64,000 nucleotides of DNA from Candidatus Babelota bacterium (GCA_003511165.1 DOJW01000007.1:148324-212323); one strand, 5' to 3'. Shown: positions 5,039 through 51,649, counted from the stretch's first letter. Made by a program: numbers and translations. The notes: generated from the letters alone by a model not told the origin.

Positions 5039-6072
5039 TTAATTATTCCTTCTTTGCAATTCTATAACAATCGCAGAACAGTTGTCTTCGGAAAAATGTA
5101 AAGCTTTTTCCACTAAATCTTTTGCTAAATTTTCTCCATGTGTTCTTATGTTTTCAGTCAAAAGACGTCCTATGCCACGATTGCTATATTCCCATTCAAA
5201 TTGTTGTTCATCTTTAAAACAGGAAGGTGGTCCTGCAATTCCTTCCCAAACACCATCACAAACTAAAACAATAAAGGTATCATCCGATTTTAGCTTTATT
5301 TTAGTTATGTCTGGTATTGGAGAAATTATGTTTAGGCCATCTGGTTTAAACATAAAATCGCCAATAGTCCTAGTCATTGCAATGTTGGGAGCGGCGCCCG
5401 CATACTGTACGTAACCATTACAAATTTCTGCTCCTTGCGTTAAAACTCTATCTCTTTCTTCTTTAACATAAGGTCTATGATCTGTTGTCGCAAATCTGCA
5501 ATACTAACTAAAACACCCCTACTGTCTCCTAGGTTTATAAAATAAGCAGTGTTATTTTGCTTATCAATATAAACGCATGTTGCGCATGAACCCTGTTTAA
5601 TAGCTTCTTCTCTATTTTTCAATGCTGACTCAACAGTTGCAAAACTTAGAGAAAAAACTTCCCTGTTTAACCAATATTTATCAATTATTTCGAAAATACA
5701 TGCTTGCAAGTTACCTTGCAAGCATTCAGATACAAAACTTCCTCCATGTCCGTCATAAATTCCAGCAAAAATTCTTTTTTCATCTTCAAAAATATTAAAT
5801 CTATCTTCCATAGCAGGGCGCTCATTTTGTACATGATGTTCGTAAATCTTAAATCTAAAAAAATTGTTTGGTAACCTAGGCGTTGTAGCTGCCTGAGGTT
5901 TTGGTAATATAGGTTGTTGCTGCAATTCTTCTACATAATGTGATACATCAAAAGGTTTTTCAGCGGGCTTTTCATTCATAGGCTCGCCCAAACCTTTTGA
6001 AGCCCCGCATCCGGCAAAAACATTGTTGTAAAAAATAAACAGAAAAATTGGTAAAATTTTTATAATTTTCAT
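5039..6072 (-). pseudogene. PP2C-family Ser/Thr phosphatase with lipoprotein-type signal peptide, disrupted by a frameshift
   Basis: N-terminal ORF (6072-5440) carries ERPAMEDRF and GIYDGHGG, then NLGDSRGVL. The other frame (open from ~5503) continues RFATTDHRPYVKEERDRVLTQGAEI...AMTRTIGDF...FIVLVCDGVWE...SEDNCSAIVIEL. The frame change lies within 5488-5510. Lipobox-like VFAGC. Confidence 0.75.
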
Positions 6073-6227
6073 TTGACCTTCTTTTTTGATTTTTATTTTT
6101 GTTAAAACTTTTTATTACAAGTTAATTTTTTTAAAATAACTTAAATTTTCTAAAATTCAATATTCCTTTTTCAAAACCCTTAGCCATCTTAGTCAACTCC
6201 TTGCATCTTTACTTTCGTTCGTACCCA

Positions 6228-6276
6228 TTCGACTACGCCATAAAATGGCTCCGCTCAGGGCAAACGAAAATTTAAA
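6228..6276. repeat. 49-nt hairpin module shared, in inverted orientation, with repeat island C (51234-51282)
   Basis: The reverse complement of 6228-6276 (cgtttgccctgagcggagccattttatggcgtagtcgaatgggtacgaa) matches 51234-51282 with 3 mismatches. Confidence 0.7.
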
Positions 6277-6359
6277 ATATGATTCGATGATAATAACCAC
6301 TGTAAGATTATAAAATAAAGTTTAATGTAGATTCGAAAGAGGTTTAATATTCCAGTGAA

Positions 6360-6900
6360 AGCCACCCCGGCTTAAAAGCCGGGGCTTCTAACTCATGAAA
6401 ACTATTTTTGATTTTGAACATATTTTTTTATCACTTCTTCATCACAACTTCCAACCGTCTCGGCAAAATATCCATCCGACCAAAGACTATCTCCCCAAAG
6501 AAATTCTTCTAACTCAGGAAACTCTTCTCTTATCTTTTTACTACTTCCACCCTTAAACAATTGTATTGCTCTTGCAACACTAGTTTTTGTGTCTAATTGC
6601 ACAATTGCATGTATATGATCAATCTGCACGTTAATTTCTTGTACTTGCCAGTTATTAACTTCTGCGCATTGAATTAATAGTTCCTTAATTCTATCCGCAA
6701 GCATCCCCTTTAAAATTCTTTTTCTATATTTTGGTATCCATATTATATGGTACATAAGCCTGTGTTTTGTATGTGAACCTAACCAATACTTTTTCATATT
6801 TAGGAGTATGCCATCTTTATTGGCGACTCGCAAAATCTCCGATTTTTGCTGCCTCGCCAAGTGGACTCGCATTCATCCCCAGGTTTAAAACCCTGGGGTT
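6360..6900 (-). mobile_element. IS200/IS605-family insertion sequence (tnpA only); exact ends not defined
   Basis: A Y1 transposase gene is flanked by subterminal GC hairpins: ccccggc-ttaaaa-gccgggg (6365-6384) and ccccagg-tttaaaac-cctgggg (6877-6898). It sits in the intergenic gap between the PP2C pseudogene and the MCE gene. Confidence 0.75.
6402..6872 (-). CDS. tnpA: IS200-type Y1 (HUH) transposase TnpA
   Basis: HTKHRLMYHIIWIPKYRKRIL, IDHIHAIVQL (HUH motif) and SDGYFAETVG (catalytic Tyr region). An alternative start at 6797 (MKKYW) gives 131 aa. The 6872 start is preceded by GGGGA, which lies inside the 6877-6898 hairpin. Confidence 0.9.
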   Translation of the reverse strand: MRVHLARQQKSEILRVANKDGILLNMKKYWLGSHTKHRLMYHIIWIPKYRKRILKGMLADRIKELLIQCAEVNNWQVQEINVQIDHIHAIVQLDTKTSVARAIQLFKGGSSKKIREEFPELEEFLWGDSLWSDGYFAETVGSCDEEVIKKYVQNQK

Positions 6901-13347: not shown

Positions 13348-14358
13348 ATGAAAATAAAAAATATAGTTATATTGGTAGTAGCTTTGGCAGCAATAATTAA
13401 CTTTGATAAAAACATTTTTGCAAAATCAAATATCTCCAAAAAAAATTATTTTACTGCGCATCCTTCAGTCAAATACAATGTCAATTTAAATAGCGAATAT
13501 AAAACACAGCAATTTAACACCGCACTAGAAAAGTATATAAAAGAAGAATACAACAGCAGTGACTATGCAGATTACATTTCACAAAACAGCGGGCACTTTC
13601 TCGAGCTTTTAAAAATTATAGACAATTTCAAATTGGGAGACGACTCCATCCCTTATTTTTATACAATATTCAAACTTTTCAACGACAAAATGAAATCATG
13701 CGAACTTGTAGATTACGCTGTTGTTCAATCAATTTTAGAAGAGATGCCACAAATTTTAAAACCTTATTTAAAAGCAGAAAACGTTGATGTCAAAACATTA
13801 ATTGAAAAGCAACTTGATTATCTAATTCAATCCAAAATGCAAACATACCTAAAACCAGTCAAAACACCAGTCAGCAACATAAAAAACTTTTCAAATAATT
13901 TAACACGCGAACTATCAACAACTTATCAAAACGAAAAAGATAAGATCGAAAATTTGTTTAAATTGAGAAGTATCGCAGTACGCTTTTTAGAAAATATAAT
14001 CGGTAAATCAGTCTGGAGCAAAAGCCACTATGAATCAATCTGGCCCGCTTTCACCAAAATCTCATTTTTGATTGATAATCTTTATAAATATGAAATCATT
14101 GATGATGAAGACGAAATAGACAGTCTAAAATGGTCGCTCGTTCATTCATTTTGCAAATTTATAGATATTGTCAGCATTGAACTTCCACTAGATTTTTACG
14201 AAGAAATCGAAGACGATCTTGTAAATAAAACAATTCCATTTTTAGAGGAAGAAGAACAAGATGCATTCATCAAAACAAAAAAAACAACCATCGGTGAATG
14301 CCTGCTAAAAACTAAGAGCCGAACTATTGGATATAAGAAGATGGGAATCATTTCATAA
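13348..14358 (+). CDS. Hypothetical secreted protein
   Basis: Full ORF with signal peptide MKIKNIVILVVALAAIINFDKNIFA. No family recognised. Confidence 0.55.
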   Translation: MKIKNIVILVVALAAIINFDKNIFAKSNISKKNYFTAHPSVKYNVNLNSEYKTQQFNTALEKYIKEEYNSSDYADYISQNSGHFLELLKIIDNFKLGDDSIPYFYTIFKLFNDKMKSCELVDYAVVQSILEEMPQILKPYLKAENVDVKTLIEKQLDYLIQSKMQTYLKPVKTPVSNIKNFSNNLTRELSTTYQNEKDKIENLFKLRSIAVRFLENIIGKSVWSKSHYESIWPAFTKISFLIDNLYKYEIIDDEDEIDSLKWSLVHSFCKFIDIVSIELPLDFYEEIEDDLVNKTIPFLEEEEQDAFIKTKKTTIGECLLKTKSRTIGYKKMGIIS

Positions 14359-14403
14359 GGAATTTATCATCCCTTATTTATATCCCAATTTTTAAAACTT
14401 AAT

Positions 14404-14862
14404 TTATATATTTATTCTTAGTTTATCTTTTAATTTATTCTGCTTTAAGTTTGTTTTTCTTTTTTCTTTAATCAAATTAGCTCCGCTAGGGCCAAGGGTG
14501 TTGATTTGAACACCCTTGGATCCCCAAACTAAAGAAGTTTCTTTAGAATCTCTGACGCCTGAAACTCCCGCATCCAGTCTAGCCCGGACTTCGCATAAAG
14601 CTATGTCGGGCTAGACTGGACTGCGGTTCTAACAGCCAGGCTAATTTGGAATCTACAAATTTATATTATAGAAATCCAGGAAAATATAATTATTAAATAC
14701 TGATCCAGCACTACCTGTTTGAGTCGGAGTACAACGTAGTTGTATCCCGGCGAGTTTAGTGCTGTAGAGATTTTAAAGAAACCTCTTTAATGTGTGATTG
14801 CAAAGGATGCACACCCATCCTTTGCCGCACAGCGCGTAGCTGCTAAGGATAAAAAAATAGAA
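14404..14862. repeat. GC-rich composite repeat island A (non-coding, modular hairpins)
   Basis: 14471-14535 is nearly identical to the reverse complement of 43643-43707. 14701-14830 is ~95% identical to 51368-51497. The end module cctttgcc..gctgctaaggataaaaa is shared with the island B left end (inverted) and the island C right end. GC-rich in an AT-rich background. Confidence 0.8.
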
Positions 14863-15065
14863 TAAAAAAGCATAAGAAAAATACCTAAAATACTAATAGG
14901 ATTTATAAAAACATCCCTTCCATACCTCTTAAAACCAAAAAACAATTAAATTCAAGGTTTTTTAAAACAATTTTTAACGCTAACTATCAAACCTTTAAGT
15001 TTTTCAAATTTCGCTTTATCATATTTGGATATAAAAATTAAAAACCAAATCTGTAAGGGAACAAT

Positions 15066-21937: not shown

Positions 21938-22069
21938 ACCCCCAAGGCCTTTAGCTTTGTAGTGAATGGCGAGTAGAACCCTTCGTAGCTCCATGGGGGC
22001 GAAGTAGGGTTGGCTTCGAAGAATTACGTGTGATACAACAGCTTAAAAACTGTTTCACACTTCATTTTC

Positions 22070-34238: not shown

Positions 34239-34287
34239 TTTTTTATATTTGTACAATTCTAAATTTATGAATATTTACAATATTTTC

Positions 34288-34402
34288 CTGGATCCCCGCA
34301 TTCGCGAGGATGACAGTGAGAGAAATATATATTGTAATTATTCCTCATTTTCAGAAGGAATTAGCAACCGATCCCGTCATCCTCGCGAATGCGGGGATCC
34401 AG
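34288..34402. repeat. 115-bp MITE-like element with perfect 27-bp terminal inverted repeats
   Basis: ctggatccccgcattcgcgaggatgac (34288-34314) is the exact reverse complement of gtcatcctcgcgaatgcggggatccag (34376-34402). Confidence 0.8.
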
Positions 34403-34470
34403 TCTTTATAGATCCAATCAAGGATGAAGATAAGATCCTATCAAGTAGTTCACAAAAATTGCACACACCC

Positions 34471-34590
34471 AATTCAAGCAATATCAAATTTGACAAAGTC
34501 CCACGTCATCCTCGCGAATTGCATATGTCTCATTCAAGCGATATCAGAATTGATAGTGTCCTCCGTCATCCTCGCGAATGCGGGGATCCA
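34471..34590 (+). repeat. Two tandem ~60-nt units ending in the same hairpin core (first copy truncated)
   Basis: aattcaagcaatatcaaatttgacaaagtcccacgtcatcctcgcgaatt... followed by cattcaagcgatatcagaattgatagtgtcctccgtcatcctcgcgaatgcggggatcca. A third unit lies at 35008-35066. Confidence 0.75.
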
Positions 34591-34620
34591 TTTCAAAATT
34601 TATACAAAAGAAATACCACA

Positions 34621-35103
34621 ATGAAAACCTTTTATGTTTATATTACTTGTTCTAAAAAAAATGGAACCTTATATATTGGGATGACCAATGATCTTACAAG
34701 GCGCATGCAAGAACATAAAAACAAATTAATTAAAGGATTCACAAAAAAATATTCGGTAAATTTGCTTGTATACTATGAAACATTTGAATCAATAATTGAT
34801 GCAATTAAAAGAGAAAAGCAATTAAAAAAATGGAAACGTGAATGGAAGATGCACTTTATCGAAAAGATCAATCCCAATTGGAAAGATTTAAGTGAAACCG
34901 ATATTTTCCTGGATCCCCGCATTCGCGAGGATGACAATAAGGAAAATATGAATTTTACATATTCTTCAGCAACTAACACCGATAACTTTAATATTGGCTC
35001 CCTCCCTAATTCAAGCGATATCAAAATTGACCAAGTCCCACGTCATCCTCGCGAATGCGGGGATCCAGTCTTCATTGCTCCAAACAAGGAAGAAAATGAA
35101 TAA
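34621..35103 (+). CDS. Small stand-alone GIY-YIG nuclease-domain protein (conserved core ~34621-34895; the C-terminal tail reads through repeat DNA)
   Basis: MKTFYVYITCSKKNGTLYIGMTNDLTRRMQEHK...REKQLKKWKREWK contains the GIY (VYI), YIG, Arg and Glu positions of the GIY-YIG fold. There is no in-frame stop until 35103, so the true C-terminus is uncertain. Confidence 0.7.
   Translation: MKTFYVYITCSKKNGTLYIGMTNDLTRRMQEHKNKLIKGFTKKYSVNLLVYYETFESIIDAIKREKQLKKWKREWKMHFIEKINPNWKDLSETDIFLDPRIREDDNKENMNFTYSSATNTDNFNIGSLPNSSDIKIDQVPRHPRECGDPVFIAPNKEENE
34919..35068. repeat. 150-bp MITE-like element with the same perfect 27-bp terminal inverted repeats
   Basis: ctggatccccgcattcgcgaggatgac (34919-34945) and gtcatcctcgcgaatgcggggatccag (35042-35068). 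Confidence 0.8.
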
Positions 35104-43157: not shown

Positions 43158-43196
43158 AGAAAGGGGCGGAAAATTCCGCCCCTTTCTTATTTTGTT
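43158..43196 (+). terminator. Rho-independent terminator of CDS 40434-43136
   Basis: 12-bp stem agaaaggggcgg (43158-43169) / ccgcccctttct (43176-43187), followed by tattttgtt. Confidence 0.75.
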
Positions 43197-43282
43197 ACAA
43201 TCCATGTTTTGTCTAATTTTAATTAAATATTTTTTAAATTTTAAAATTTTTGATATTAATTTCTTCTTCCGTTTCTTTCTTT

Positions 43283-43762
43283 TTTTATTTTTATCTTTAG
43301 CTGCTCCCGCAGTGGGGCAAGGAGATTTTGTCGCAAAAACCTCCTTGCATCCTCCGTGCGCCAAAAGAGGACTTTTGGATTTCCTACAACGCTAAACTAT
43401 CTGGATGCAACTACGTTGCACTGCGATAGTAGCGTTGCAATGCGGATACACAAATTTTATTTACTGGGTTTAGAACTTTTGCGAAAATCTATTTTATATT
43501 TCCTTTATTTTTCTAAATTTGAATTGTTGAAAAATTTAGAAAAACGTCTTTATGAGAATATAGGATTCCAAATTAGCGCTACCTGTTTGAACTGCAGTCC
43601 AGTTTTACTGGATGCAGGAGTTTAGCGCGTAGAGAGATTACAAAGAAACCTCTTTGTTTTGGGGATCCAAGGGTGTTCAAATCAACACCCTTGGCCCTAG
43701 CGGAGCTAATTTGATTAAAAAAAAAGTAAAACAAACTTAAAGCAGAATAATTTTAAATAAAC
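43283..43762. repeat. GC-rich composite repeat island B (inverted relative to island A)
   Basis: The left end (43283-43325) is the reverse complement of the A/C right-end module. 43497-43560 is ~90% identical to 51296-51360. 43643-43707 is the reverse complement of 14471-14535. Confidence 0.8.
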
Positions 43763-43864
43763 GGAAGAAGAATAGAATTAAATTAAATTAAGAAAATTAG
43801 GTAAAAAAATAAGGGACCATTTCTGATCCCTTTGTCCTTTTATCAAATATTTTTGAAAAAAGAT

Positions 43865-44794: not shown

Positions 44795-45020
44795 AAAATA
44801 GACCCTTTTATTTTTAAATTAATTCGATTTATAAGCATTAAAATAACATTAAAGCAATCATATTTTTTGTAAACCGCCTAAAAACTAATAGTTTTTGTCT
44901 GAAATATATTGATTTTAATAACTTTCAAGCGGTTGCAAATAGTAATTCATTCATTAATATAGTTGTTATTACTATTATTTTAATAAAAGAGCTAAAAATA
45001 CAGTTTTTAATGGAGAATTT

Positions 45021-46265
45021 ATGAAAATGTTAAAAAAGTTAATTTTATTACTCAGTTTATTTACTGCAAATCTAAATGTTTTATCGGCTGTAACGTATCA
45101 AGAATTTAAACAGGACAAAGAATCGTTTTTGCAAGAATTGCAAAGAGAATATCCTTTTGTAGGAGATCTTATACCTTTTTGGCGAAATCTTTTAATAGTT
45201 TGTAAGGCAAAACTTAATCCAGAGTTGTTAAACAGGCCTTATGTAAAAGCTATTGTTAACAAAAATGAAAATCTAAACATGTTTAATGTGGATAGACTTG
45301 AAGAATATTTGCAAACAAACAGTTTAGGAGAATTTTGGATAAAATATTTTGATCTAACTAATTCTAATATAAAAGATTTCATAAGCCCTGAGATATGGGA
45401 TAATCAAAATTATTGGCGTTTGATAAATGATAATTTTGACAGGATAAAACTAGCATTAAATGACAGAAGCGTAAAAAATGGGTGTCTATTTGATTTTACT
45501 AATTCAAGCCAAGCTAAAATTATTTCTGATTTAGGTTTAAAAAAAGTTGTTAATTTTTCTGATTCAAGTTCAACAATTGCCGAATTCCTAAAAAATACAT
45601 TGCTAGAGTTTGGTGAAAATCCCGATGATTTTTACTATGTCACTGAAAAAGAGATTTTTAATAATGAATTTCGATTAGAGTTTTTTAAAGGTTTTATTAA
45701 AAGAATTGATGAATCTCCCGAAGGTTTAATTTTGACGACACCTTTTGGTTATCTTAGATTACAAGGAAATTGTCATGTATTTTTAGCAAGTGAATCAATT
45801 TTTTCAGTTCTTCCAGAAACGGAAAAGAAGGCTTTGCTACTTCATGAATTGGGCCATAAAAAAACTAATGATTATTTTTTACCTTTATTTAGCGGGTTTG
45901 CACAAGCAACTTTATCAGATGAAACATTTAAAATGTGCATATTGCCGTTGATGAATATTGCAAAGCAAATTGATGAATTTAAGGCAGACCTTTTTATGGC
46001 TTGTTGTGGGAAAAAATATCGAAGCAAATTCATTGATTTATTATTTTTTGCCCAAGAAAGTTTAGAAAAGAGCGGCGAAAAAGCTGAAGCTGTAGATCCT
46101 GCGCATCCTTCTAATGCTAAACGAATCGATGCGATAAAGATGGTGGGAAGTCAACTTGATGCACAAGGAGCCGGGGAAAATGTGCTTGCAAAGTTGAAAG
46201 AAAATTGGAAAAAACAATATGACGAATTACTACAAAAAGAGCTTATAAAAACTGATTCAAAATAA
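45021..46265 (+). CDS. Secreted M48-like zinc metalloprotease-domain protein (paralog A)
   Basis: Signal peptide; HELGH (nt 45843-45857); downstream IDEFKADLF (E-x2-AD) and DPAHPSNAKRI. This spacing is typical of the peptidase M48 fold. Confidence 0.6.
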   Translation: MKMLKKLILLLSLFTANLNVLSAVTYQEFKQDKESFLQELQREYPFVGDLIPFWRNLLIVCKAKLNPELLNRPYVKAIVNKNENLNMFNVDRLEEYLQTNSLGEFWIKYFDLTNSNIKDFISPEIWDNQNYWRLINDNFDRIKLALNDRSVKNGCLFDFTNSSQAKIISDLGLKKVVNFSDSSSTIAEFLKNTLLEFGENPDDFYYVTEKEIFNNEFRLEFFKGFIKRIDESPEGLILTTPFGYLRLQGNCHVFLASESIFSVLPETEKKALLLHELGHKKTNDYFLPLFSGFAQATLSDETFKMCILPLMNIAKQIDEFKADLFMACCGKKYRSKFIDLLFFAQESLEKSGEKAEAVDPAHPSNAKRIDAIKMVGSQLDAQGAGENVLAKLKENWKKQYDELLQKELIKTDSK

Positions 46266-46290
46266 AAATACAATTTTTAATGGAGAATCT

Positions 46291-48069
46291 ATGAAAATAT
46301 TAAAAAAGTTAATTTTATTACTTGGTTTACTTACTGCCGGATTGAATGATTTATCGGCTAATCCACTAATGGATTTTTTACGATCTTTTCAAGCACATGT
46401 TCAAAGTCCACTCAAAAAAGAACAAAATTTAGTTCAAATGCCCCGAAGAACTTTTTTTGATATGCTGCGCGATATTCCAAAAGCGATTACAGAAACTGAT
46501 GAAGAGCAAGCCAAAAAATATGAAAAAATAGCGGCAATTGTTTTAGAAAAAAAGTATGAAGAGTATAAAAAAGATAAAGAATCATTTTTAAGCGAATTGT
46601 ACAAAGATTATCCATTTTTAAAAGAAGCGTACCCTTATCTGCGTAATCTTTTAATAATTTCTAAAGCAAAGCGTGATCCAAGTTTATTACAGAGACCTTA
46701 TGTTCGATCTATCTACGATGGAAAAAAAGATTTTTACTGGTATATGGATCAAAATAAAGAACTTGCCACCACTGAATCGTTGAGGGATTTTTTTGAAAAA
46801 TATGTAGATTTATCGTATGCATCAGTGAGAGATTTTTCAGATCCTGATTTATTAGAAAGCAAGGATCAGCTATTTTGGGAGCGTATCTATTTTTCTTTTG
46901 ACAAGCTAAAAGGCAAAAATTATCAGCAAGTAGAAGAACTTGCTGAACAAAAAATTGATAATTACGTAGAACAAATTGATAAATTTTTGCAACACACTGA
47001 TTGGAAATCCGTAAATTCAAATTCGTTTTGGTTAAAATATTGGAAAAAATTTAGTTTAAGAAGCTCTACGATTACCGAATTTATACAAAAACAACTACAA
47101 GCATTGGTAGATGCTTTAAAAGAATCCGAACTAGAACGACTAAAAAAAATTGAAGCCATAAATTCGGAACGACAAAAAACATCTGATATTATTAAACAAA
47201 ATCTATTTTGGGGTTGGTTAAAACGTTGCAAAAAACTTAGTTTAAATGATTCTATAGTGGCCGAATTTATAAAAAAAGAAATATTAGAGCTTGGAGGAGA
47301 TCCAAGAAATTATTTTTTTAATGAAGAGAATGCTACTTACGGTAGTCCTGCTGCTTATGGGAAATTTAGAGGGAAGGAAGCTTTTTATTTCGCAGAAAAT
47401 TTTTTATCGTCTTTATCAAAAAAAGAAGCAGCGGCTGTATTTAGACATGAATGGGGACATAAAATTTTGCGTCGCTATGCATTAAATTATTTGTTTTTGG
47501 AAGATATTAGACCACCATTATTTTACGGCCATTTTCAGAATGATGAATCAAGAGCAGATTTATATGCAGCTTTATGTGGGAAAAAATATAACGAAGCATT
47601 AATTTCCTTGGATAGCTGTGAGCCAGAAAATTATTCGGATAAAATACATCCTTTAGCTTCTCAGCGCGTCATATTGGCAAAAAAAGTATGCAAATCCGTT
47701 GTCGAGCAAGAAATAGGAGAAGATGCTCTTGGACGACTTAAAAAAGAACACCTAGATGAGGTAAGTAGAGATATTACTCGAAAAGGAAAAGAATTATTTG
47801 ATACTATTTTTCCAGAATTACGATCGACTCGAGGATTTTCTGATCTAATTCCACAAGATTTATCTGGGAACACAGGTGCATTAGTTGCTAAAAGAGAACA
47901 ATGTGATGAAACGAAACATGATGCAAAAGTTTGTAAAAAATCGAATGGATTGAAGGATTTAACAACGCATGAATCTGCTAAAAAACAAAATGGTTTCAAA
48001 GATTTAGTAAAGTCAAAACCTGAAGATATGCCTGCGCGTAAACCGTTATTTGAACATCATAGTTCTTAA
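46291..48069 (+). CDS. Secreted M48-like zinc metalloprotease-domain protein (paralog B, longer)
   Basis: Signal peptide; HEWGH (nt 47446-47460); ESRADLY and IHPLASQRV. The N-terminal domain is homologous to paralog A (YEEYKKDKESFLSELYKDYPF versus YQEFKQDKESFLQELQREYPF). Confidence 0.6.
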   Translation: MKILKKLILLLGLLTAGLNDLSANPLMDFLRSFQAHVQSPLKKEQNLVQMPRRTFFDMLRDIPKAITETDEEQAKKYEKIAAIVLEKKYEEYKKDKESFLSELYKDYPFLKEAYPYLRNLLIISKAKRDPSLLQRPYVRSIYDGKKDFYWYMDQNKELATTESLRDFFEKYVDLSYASVRDFSDPDLLESKDQLFWERIYFSFDKLKGKNYQQVEELAEQKIDNYVEQIDKFLQHTDWKSVNSNSFWLKYWKKFSLRSSTITEFIQKQLQALVDALKESELERLKKIEAINSERQKTSDIIKQNLFWGWLKRCKKLSLNDSIVAEFIKKEILELGGDPRNYFFNEENATYGSPAAYGKFRGKEAFYFAENFLSSLSKKEAAAVFRHEWGHKILRRYALNYLFLEDIRPPLFYGHFQNDESRADLYAALCGKKYNEALISLDSCEPENYSDKIHPLASQRVILAKKVCKSVVEQEIGEDALGRLKKEHLDEVSRDITRKGKELFDTIFPELRSTRGFSDLIPQDLSGNTGALVAKREQCDETKHDAKVCKKSNGLKDLTTHESAKKQNGFKDLVKSKPEDMPARKPLFEHHSS

Positions 48070-50708: not shown

Positions 50709-50814
50709 ACTATTTTTTAGAATTTTTTGGTTTATAAAAAGGCGCTAGATAATTTAACATTTTGGTTTAAAGAATCCAAGAAGGAATTAATCATTCCTTA
50801 CATTTATCCATATT

Positions 50815-51527
50815 TTTATTATTCTACTTTAAGTTTGTTTTTTAATTTTATTTTGTCAAAGATTCTACCCGCCCAGACTTCGCATAAAGCTTCGTCGGGT
50901 AAACTATGGGCCAAGGGCGCTCAAAATACAGCCCCCTTGGATCCCCAAACTAAAGAGAAATATCTTTGGAATCTCTGACGTGCAAAATTTATTTATTCTT
51001 AGTTTATCTTTTAATTTATTTTTATCTTTGGATTGCTACACGCAAGGTGACAGAGAGGATTATACGCAAAATCCTCTCTGTACTCTCCTATGCGCAAAAA
51101 GAGACTTTTGGATTTCCTTCAACGCAACGCTAAACTGTCTGGTCACAATTTCATTGTGCTGCGACAGTAGCCTTGCAAATAAGGATCCACAATAGATACA
51201 ATAGACCTCCCCTGAAACCAGACATAAAAAATCCGTTTGCCCTGAGCGAAGCCTTTTTATGGCGTAGTCGAATGGGTACAAACGGCATAATATGTATCTT
51301 CCTTTATTTTTCTAAATTTGAATTGTTGAAAAATTTAGAAAAACGTCTTAATGAGAATGTAAGATTCTGATCCAGCACTATCTGTTTGAGTCGGAGTACA
51401 ACGTAGTTGTATCCCGGCGAGTTTAGTGCTGTAGAGATTTTAAAGAAACCTCTTTAATGCGTGATTGCAAAGGGTGCGCATTCATCCTTTGCCCCCCTGC
51501 GGGAGCAGCCAGAAATAAAAAAATAGA
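50815..51527. repeat. GC-rich composite repeat island C (largest; contains A-type left modules, B-type internal modules and the 6228-6276 module)
   Basis: 50988-51018 is identical to 14410-14438. 50908-50980 is homologous to 14488-14560. 51085-51180 is homologous to 43350-43440. 51234-51282 is the reverse complement of 6228-6276. 51368-51497 is homologous to 14701-14830. Confidence 0.8.
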
Positions 51528-51649
51528 TAAAAGAAACAGAAGAAGAATTAGAAAACAAACTTAAAACAGAATGACGTCATAAATTAAAAATAAAGAAATG
51601 AAGGAAGAGTTAATTAACAAACAAAAAAAGAATTTAGATAAAACAGGAT

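Follow-up and report, generated by a model that had tools for sequence, protein, structure and literature searches.

Bacterial interspersed mosaic elements (BIMEs) of Escherichia coli are intergenic, terminator-like clusters of motifs set in alternating orientation near gene ends, and the repetitive extragenic palindromic (REP) and BIME elements of this organism act as bidirectional terminator and RNA-stabilizer cassettes for flanking genes. The pneumococcal BOX and RUP, the Neisseria Correia and the enterobacterial ERIC elements have defined terminal inverted repeats, and Correia and RUP elements also show target duplications and an origin resembling that of an insertion sequence (IS). To our knowledge, none of the BOX/RUP, Correia and ERIC families shows two non-identical units constantly paired head-to-head. 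In REPINs associated with RAYT transposases (e.g. in Pseudomonas fluorescens), the REP is a single palindrome of ~20–40 nt, and a near-identical pair of REPs makes one hairpin (PMC3116915, PMC3337134). Here, we describe three intergenic islands, A, B and C, in a 64,000-nt stretch of chromosomal DNA (DOJW01000007.1:148324-212323, hereafter the window) from a Candidatus Dependentiae (candidate division TM6) population of the Rifle aquifer. Judged from their sequences, each island is a mosaic cluster built from a structured unit peculiar to this lineage, which has multiplied in the genome and most likely gives rise to RNA.

When placed in one orientation, seven segments of islands A, B and C align as copies of a single unit of ~155 nt with four hairpin arms (P2/P3, P4, P5 and P6), which conserved single-stranded linkers join. 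From 5′ to 3′, the unit opens with the leader TGTRGATYC and continues with the long arm, in which stem P2 encloses an internal loop or a second stem plus hairpin P3, the linker GAGTTTAG, a second linker AGAGATT (AGGAAAT in two subfamilies), the short hairpin P4 (AAAGA..TCTTT), the long bulged hairpin P5 and the 4-bp hairpin P6 with its 3–5-nt loop; a further linker, YCTGTTWGA, is also conserved. A covariance model built on six copies finds exactly seven units in the window, six full (100–156 bits) and one truncated (30 bits), and with all filters off the next-best score in the window is 11.5 bits, which is background. Four further units, scoring within the 30–156-bit range of the model, lie in two additional islands of the same genome, D and F.

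These units (U1–U11) fall into subfamilies a (U1 and U2), b (U3, U4, U5 and U11), c (U6 and U9) and d (U7 and U8), with U10 an a/d recombinant and U5 a truncated copy. Identity is 81–94% within a subfamily and 45–76% between subfamilies. U3 and U4 have identical P5 arms and divergent P2–P4 regions. A closing helix, P1, which would make the unit a cloverleaf, was rejected on reading by eye, since its position shifts among copies and U11 alters one strand without compensation.

The fold is kept across the four subfamilies through compensatory base changes. In the alignment of the 11 units on the model, 89.7% of the pair cells hold standard pairs and 22 of the 39 pairs vary on both sides; a nine-unit alignment gives the same picture. 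Controls in which the 3′ partners were slid by 1–3 columns retain 35–46% pairing, with 0–7 pairs varying on both sides. None of 500 shuffles reaches the observed pairing, either count of both-side changes or the covariation score (four of five measures), whereas the fifth measure, ‘further pair types’, is reached by 487 of them. Stem P2 occurs as AGCACTA/TAGTGCT, GCGCTA/TAGCGC, GCCTG/CAGGC and CAACGCTA/TAGCGTTG, and P6 as CTGC/GCAG, CAGC/GCTG, TAGC/GCTA, TTGC/GCAA and GTGC/GCAC. The unit shows the compensatory change that marks a generic structured non-coding RNA, though in an alignment that was fitted to the model.

The conserved fold has a preferred strand. A single unit (U3) folds far more stably than its shuffled versions on either strand (z −5.8 and −6.6), so the z-score alone cannot tell which strand matters. 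Along the unit strand, the modelled pairs include 17 G·U versus 4 A·C cells, and helices defined by hand and read by eye have G·U at seven or more independent positions and A·C at none. In seven of seven units, the unit strand reaches a minimum free energy 3.6–8.3 kcal/mol below that of its complement, and the opposite strand of the units draws noise-level covariance-model scores only. Together, the G·U excess over A·C and the lower free energy indicate that the constrained form is the single-stranded unit strand. Such a constraint fits RNA, and it fits strand-specific single-stranded DNA equally well.

All five islands seen as DNA carry two units head-to-head, with their 5′ ends toward a central AT-rich spacer, so that the better-folding strand of each unit reads outward. 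The two arms of one island are only 52–76% identical; set against the within-subfamily values, this marks the islands as mosaics. The ‘two end modules’ of the sequence-only reading are inverted copies of this one structured unit rather than transposon termini, accompanied by the accessory modules M1 and M2, a spacer module S, a tail motif P and a distal hairpin, and the island extents were revised to ~14357–14920, 43192–43832 and 50781–51625.

Island A (14357..14920) has the composition U4(b,−) + U1(a,+). It begins with a distal hairpin, AAGGAATTTATCATCCCTT (14357..14375), which overlaps the stop codon of a 336-aa gene and is terminator-like in the inward direction, with a T-rich tail. Then follow a tail with motif P (14437..14457, minus strand), U4 (14472..14657, minus strand; cmsearch 122.5 bits), whose P3 is extended by M1 (~14580–14613), a 34-nt central spacer (14658..14691) with two perfect outward TATAAT boxes, U1 (14692..14847, plus strand; 153.9 bits), an A-rich tail and a degenerate hairpin. 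Two assemblies of the same population differ at U1 by a 15-nt indel, ATTAAATACTGATCC (14692–14706), which removes the U1 leader right after the TATAAT box and is the sole difference in ~740 aligned bases (window versus contig L001).

Island B (43192..43832) lies between the terminators of two convergent genes and reads U6(c,−) + S + U3(b,+). U6 (43296..43452, minus strand; 130.4 bits) is followed by spacer module S (43500..43559, plus strand), with its palindrome at 43511–43541 and a GAGAAT box just upstream of U3, and then by U3 itself (43560..43714, plus strand; 138.6 bits; fold z-score −5.8), motif P (43728..43748, plus strand) and the distal hairpin AAGGGACCATTTCTGATCCCTT (43811..43832), which is a terminator of the convergent 309-aa gene.

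Island C (50781..51625) has the composition U5(b, truncated, −) + U7(d,−) + M2 + S + U2(a,+). Its distal hairpin AAGGAATTAATCATTCCTT (50781..50799) stands at no gene end and travels with the element. Motif P at the left end (50821..50841, minus strand) is an inverted repeat of the copy near the right end (51552..51572, plus strand). Between them lie U5 (50858..50999, minus strand), which is without P2/P3, has M1 (~50866–50901) in place of P6 and scores 30.4 bits for 50895–50999; a tail-d module (50987..51020), 97% identical to 14406–14439 of island A; U7 (51028..51191, minus strand; 100.6 bits); the M2 hairpin module (51216..51284, plus strand); S (51299..51357, plus strand; found by blastn); U2 (51358..51513, plus strand; 155.9 bits); and a tail. 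Island D, just beyond the left end of the window, is U8(d,−) + M2 + S + U9(c,+), and island F, on a separate contig, is U10(a/d recombinant, −) + a 25-nt palindrome + S + U11(b,+).

The accessory parts recur across these islands. Spacer S, present in B, C, D and F, is conserved over ~60 nt and holds a 10-bp palindrome, TTCTAAATTT..AAATTTAGAA. Each unit is followed by an A-rich tail built of a few short common motifs, among them the 21-nt motif P (AAACAAACTTAAAGCAGAAT on the unit strand, which in island A reads ATTCTGCTTTAAGTTTGTTTT on the plus strand), carried by five of the ten tails examined. Motif P has four matches in the window, all inside islands, where 0.16 would be expected; we considered it as a general promoter of the genome and dropped the idea, as it is found only in islands. 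The distal hairpin AAGGRAT..ATYCCTT is clear at the tail end of U3, U4, U5, U9 and U10, and the pattern AAGGRA..TYCCTT has three window matches, all at island ends, against 0.33 expected by chance. In A and B, this hairpin comes directly after the stop codon of the neighbouring gene; C-left, D-right and F-left have the hairpin but no gene end, which makes it part of the element. The distal hairpins of B-right and F-left share the same U-rich TGTCCTTTT outward.

Units, tails, spacers, M1, M2 and a palindrome common with a GIY-YIG locus are shuffled among the islands. M1 lengthens the P3 tip in one copy (U4) and replaces P6 in another (U5), and M2 stands between unit and S in C and D and occurs alone at 6216–6284. 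Recombination between copies is indicated by the a/d chimera U10, by the identical P5 but divergent P2–P4 of U3 and U4, and by the common tails. The palindrome belongs to a second repeat family: a 27-nt sequence, GTCATCCTCGCGAATGCGGGGATCCAG, has five copies in both orientations at 34240–35103 of the window, in and around the 3′ portion of a short GIY-YIG-like ORF (open reading frame; ~34621–35103, identified by motif), and one more at 43–66. Its compensated variant, GTCATTCTCGCGAATGCGAGAATCC, lies in the spacer of island F (contig L138, 9935–9959), which places this palindrome in the same mosaics.

That the three islands are real, and similar to one another far above chance, was confirmed by blastn of the islands against the window, and a repeat search finds the same families. 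Island A at 14697–14882 matches C at 51364–51548 (87.6% over 186 nt, E 5e-62), A at 14384–14578 matches the reverse complement of B at 43607–43801 (85% over 198 nt, E 1e-56), and B at 43500–43655 matches C at 51299–51455, each comprising spacer and unit (80% over 158 nt, E 9e-34). The earlier proposal that A and B share both end modules, with B inverted, holds for the left end of A; at the right end, the likeness instead joins units of subfamilies a and c with a common P5/P6 architecture. The description of the islands as GC-rich was only partly right, since GC content over the extents first given is 0.37–0.39, compared with 0.278 in other intergenic DNA, 0.326 in coding sequence and 0.323 in the window overall, and it is in the structured units alone that it reaches 0.42–0.50.

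No intergenic gaps of the window are longer than the three that the islands fill (707, 728 and 975 nt; the remaining gaps measure 35–382 nt), and, as already noticed, the islands hold no convincing ORF. Their ORFs are short, and the annotated ones of 88–89 aa have homologues only inside islands. Public ‘hypothetical proteins’ of 88–93 aa in the islands (e.g. DEO28_03985, DEO28_04190 and DEO28_01890; contig L130 14045–14311, window 43356–43625) span the spacer and parts of units and, having no homologues elsewhere, are almost certainly spurious.

The family extends beyond the window. Island D was found by leftward extension of the locus. The 89-aa ORF called in island B belongs to a 90%-identity cluster that also holds a 93-aa variant on a 122-kb contig, a protein record from which a further island, E, is inferred, and it was through a 32-aa fragment in the same cluster that island F came to light, flanked by sufB and a NUDIX gene. 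Counting E, the family comprises five islands seen as DNA and a sixth deduced from its ORF, on at least three contigs, at a density of ~1 island per 15–18 kb in the ~86 kb read, and so it is not limited to the three loci first noticed. The differing gene contexts remarked on for A, B and C were confirmed, and the family as a whole occupies five different contexts, including co-directional, convergent, divergent and tandem-minus arrangements.

Outside this genome, the family is lineage-specific and unmatched in every library searched. Four related Dependentiae (MutS 59–65% identical), covering ~80 kb of distinct sequence, gave no covariance-model match, and the site of island C, beside mutS, is not syntenic in these relatives. 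Scanning species-representative genomes, a collection that apparently does not include the source species, with AGAGATTNNAAAGAAACYTCTTT returned five unrelated chance matches only, and in metagenomes the pattern GAGTTTN{8,9}AGAGATTNNAAAGA, which is too degenerate, gave at least 120 listed loci, none of which resembled the unit beyond the pattern itself. A protein query made of all stop-free island translations had no match, low-complexity words having probably swamped candidates, and a smaller profile of spacer ORFs matched only island ORFs. A permissive Rfam 15 search of A, B and C found nothing near the gathering score, the matches in B lying mostly on flanking gene terminators. The phage, plasmid and viral-contig collections hold no sequence similar to the islands.

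Several specific identities were considered and rejected. A riboswitch, ribozyme, tRNA-like RNA, ωRNA or group II intron fragment gave no signal in Rfam or ARAGORN. A phage origin was discarded on the lack of any phage or plasmid match, and three viral contigs with motif P have no unit. The leader ending ..TGTAGAT suggested a Cas12a-like repeat, but no matching stem or array was seen and no Cas protein is among the 20 ORFs scanned with Pfam. A CsrA/RsmZ-like sponge was set aside because GGA and TCC occur five times each in U6 by hand count, with no enrichment of GGA on the unit strand.

The reading we favour, in which our confidence is evenly balanced, is that the islands form a dispersed, recombining family of structured-RNA cassettes that would be transcribed divergently from the spacer. 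A −10-like hexamer (A at position 2, T at position 6) abuts the leader in seven of ten units, in the forms TATAAT (twice), TAAAAT, TATATT, CAAAAT and GAGAAT; the last was picked by the scan for U11 and is also visible by eye just upstream of the boxes picked for U2 and U3. In island A, the two TATAAT boxes (14665–14670, minus; 14685–14690, plus) face outward 14 nt apart, separated from the downstream unit leaders by 7 nt and 1 nt. A −10-like box at the TGTRGATYC leader would start divergent transcription from the spacer and could yield two RNAs of ~230–320 nt per island, each running from a structured 5′ domain through an A-rich linker to a 3′ hairpin of terminator-like form. The distal hairpins downstream of the units have A-rich 5′ flanks. 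Spread to new intergenic sites may have proceeded by duplication with homologous recombination or gene conversion, or through some transposition step, and the conserved unpaired linkers together with the purine-rich tail suggest a platform for protein or RNA binding.

Several observations weigh against this reading. A simple promoter/terminator scan gives no enrichment: its two-hexamer promoter sites are no more numerous than in shuffled sequence, and it misses the −10-like boxes proposed here, the TATAAT pair of island A among them. The outward U-tracts after the distal hairpins of U4, U5 and U9 are weak, and these hairpins read better as inward-facing terminators. The truncated, nested and solo fragments (U5, M1 and M2) resemble selfish repeats more than maintained RNA genes, and the scans of representative genomes and metagenomes, in yielding chance matches only, added no copies. 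The covariation counts come from the model-fitted alignment and from copies that are non-independent paralogues. Finally, single-stranded DNA hairpins also admit G·T pairs, and the strand asymmetry is therefore no proof of RNA.

This last point leads to the main rival, that the islands are non-autonomous REPIN/BIME-like elements whose single-stranded DNA hairpins are recognized and mobilized by an IS200/RAYT-like Y1 (HUH) transposase, transcription being incidental. The islands do resemble REPINs as inverted structured pairs around a spacer that are intergenic, dispersed and non-coding, with mosaic and truncated copies, in a genome that holds a Y1-family gene, and their strand-specific fold suits recognition of single-stranded DNA as well as RNA. 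The only Y1 transposase gene of the window, tnpA (6402–6872, minus strand; element 6360–6900), is flanked by similar hairpins, CCCCAGGGTTTTAAACCTGGGG upstream and CCCCGGCTTTTAAGCCGGGG downstream, and the solo M2 (6216–6284, minus strand) lies ~80 nt past the right-end (RE) hairpin. However, this protein, whose exact sequence is found at this locus only (with start calls giving 156 aa or 131 aa in different assemblies), is IS200-type by NCBIfam (133.8 bits) and not RAYT (30.7 bits against a cut-off of 80), and no units flank its gene. Its left-end (LE) and RE hairpins are unrepeated elsewhere in the window, where the pattern matches only the LE hairpin at 6877–6898, and are unlike any island module. 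Ends resembling these hairpins, as expected of palindrome-associated transposable elements (PATEs) derived from IS200/IS605, are not seen on the islands. The solo M2 is outside RE and, read by eye, adjoins sequence like S and like the AGATTC-AAAGA of the unit; together with these S-like and unit-like remnants, it resembles a piece of a decayed island beside the IS rather than a part of the IS.

The arms themselves also depart from the REPIN definition: the short, near-identical REP arms of REPINs are not found, and an island whose arms are only 52–76% identical cannot form a single REPIN-type hairpin. Each arm is instead a ~155-nt unit that folds alone into four arms, with four or five independently covarying helices, in contrast to the 20–40 nt bound by a transposase in a REP. 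A cognate RAYT flanked by the same repeats is absent from the window. REPIN-like mobility would leave the complexity of the fold unexplained, and the matching enzyme was not found in the window. In a related Dependentiae contig (L133, 2544–3670), a Y1 gene has on each side an inverted pair of a 94-nt multi-hairpin module, two direct copies of which are 100% identical and whose sequence is unrelated to the window units; this arrangement could be REP/RAYT-like or an unusual IS end, and it is a lead toward a REPIN-like link rather than evidence on the window units. On balance, we consider REPIN-like mobility unlikely, with more in its favour than the remaining rivals.

Those rivals are much less probable. 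Host-maintained insulators, that is, bidirectional terminator and RNA-stabilizer cassettes serving mainly the flanking genes without an RNA product of their own, would account for the inward terminator-like hairpins at the island ends, directly after flanking stop codons in A and B, and for the islands filling the longest intergenic gaps. We nevertheless find them improbable, because C-left, D-right and F-left lack a gene end opposite the hairpin, separate and stronger terminators already stand at the left of island B and the right of island C, and termination does not need an elaborate covarying unit. About equally improbable is a classical miniature inverted-repeat transposable element (MITE), an internally deleted derivative of a DDE-type IS moved by cut-and-paste with motif P as its terminal inverted repeat. 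Island C has the 21-nt P inverted at both ends (27 nt, 89% complementarity), and the islands are non-coding, multi-copy sequences of 560–850 bp with AT-rich ends; yet P is at one end only in A, B and F and absent from D, and the similarity runs past P outward to the distal hairpin. No target-site duplication is visible at the island ends read, and the relatives examined, which are not syntenic, offer no empty site for comparison. A parent IS is equally missing from the window: no island module matches the IS200 ends, nothing else carries matching ends, and no DDE transposase occurs among the 20 Pfam-scanned ORFs. Double-stranded cut-and-paste would also leave the G·U strand bias and the covariation within units unexplained. 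Least probable of all, and very remote in our estimate, are decayed remnants of a larger prophage, integrative element or type I toxin–antitoxin locus. The fragmentary, mosaic copies would suit such an origin, but no phage or plasmid sequence resembles them, the genes on either side are of an ordinary chromosomal kind, and neither strand has a conserved small ORF. For type I toxin–antitoxin systems (Sib/Ibs, Ldr or Hok-like), the subfamilies have no conserved ORF in common on either strand, and the T-rich inward frames, read by eye, lack start codons and are broken by stops. A coding role is moreover incompatible with stems that vary by compensatory substitutions.

BIMEs, like the islands, combine few motifs in variable combinations and alternating orientation at gene ends, although their sequences are unrelated and the unit here is far larger and more complex and belongs to a reduced-genome TM6 organism. 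BOX/RUP, Correia and ERIC elements are also modular, multi-copy sequences of 100–300 nt that fold stably when transcribed and may carry promoters or terminators, but their terminal inverted repeats, target duplications and IS-like origin are not found here. Multi-copy small RNA (sRNA) families, such as Sib/QUAD, Yfr2–5 and the csRNAs, are similar in being paralogous RNAs of 100–300 nt that were noticed as intergenic repeats with covarying stems and conserved single-stranded motifs; they differ in that the present family has no Rfam match and no toxin ORF of the kind Sib/Ibs needs, and in that it includes truncated and chimeric copies and shuffled accessory modules, features not usual in sRNA genes that are maintained.

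The evidence therefore stays within the pair of explanations first offered, a MITE/REP-like mobile family or a multi-copy structured non-coding RNA, while, of the MITE hallmarks, only the P motif at both ends of island C was seen, and the REPIN definition fails on arm length, arm identity and the type of transposase in the window. The non-coding RNA alternative gains from strong covariation and strand asymmetry, its expression side being a prediction. Neither Rfam nor the ends of the IS200 copy in the window provide a match that would assign the modules to a known family. We file the islands under dispersed structured intergenic repeats or multi-copy sRNA cassettes, which may be RNA genes, selfish DNA or both. 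More tentatively, and with rather less confidence than in the cassettes as such, the units may represent a new class, a ~155-nt four-arm structured RNA of a Dependentiae lineage encoded as divergent pairs around a shared, possibly regulated spacer (TTCTAAATTT..AAATTTAGAA). In such an RNA, the unpaired GAGUUUAG and AGAGAUU and the purine-rich tail would form contacts with a partner, either protein or nucleic acid, and the molecule itself might help to copy the cassette to new sites.

The proteins of the window are identical to those in assemblies GCA_000989975.1 and GCA_003520785.1, its MutS being assigned in the sources to Candidatus Dependentiae / TM6, and its genes are ordinary, including those for MutS, phosphoglucomutase, UvrD, type II secretion/pilus components and ATP synthase subunit c repeats, besides the one IS200-type transposase. 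No tRNA gene (ARAGORN) and no Rfam family at threshold was found anywhere in the 64 kb. A GC-rich (0.41) non-coding segment with several hairpins lies at 21938–22060, downstream of a 499-aa ORF, and matches neither Rfam nor the unit model. At 5039–6072, a PP2C phosphatase is split into ORFs of 210 and 112 aa, and a different frame of the 62 nt between them stays open with typical PP2C sequence, which identifies the split as a frameshift (a pseudogene or a shared assembly error). Two adjacent paralogues (45021–46265 and 46291–48069, within 44993–48069) have upstream regions and N-terminal leaders that are 87% identical, as if the gene of a secreted protein or lipoprotein had recently been duplicated in tandem.

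The Dependentiae (TM6), uncultured bacteria whose genomes are reduced, have been described as living with protists as symbionts or parasites, and our literature search found no paper on their non-coding repertoire. In such a streamlined genome, a multi-helix repeat kept by compensatory change is unexpected, and it is a candidate for a new RNA or mobile-element family. The islands also have practical consequences for genomes of this lineage, since at least two assembled contigs (L002 and L138) end inside or beside an island and since the islands generate spurious ‘hypothetical protein’ calls. If the units are transcribed, they would offer a ready-made family for structure probing; if they are instead moved by a Y1 transposase, they would extend the REPIN idea to a much larger and more complex cargo.

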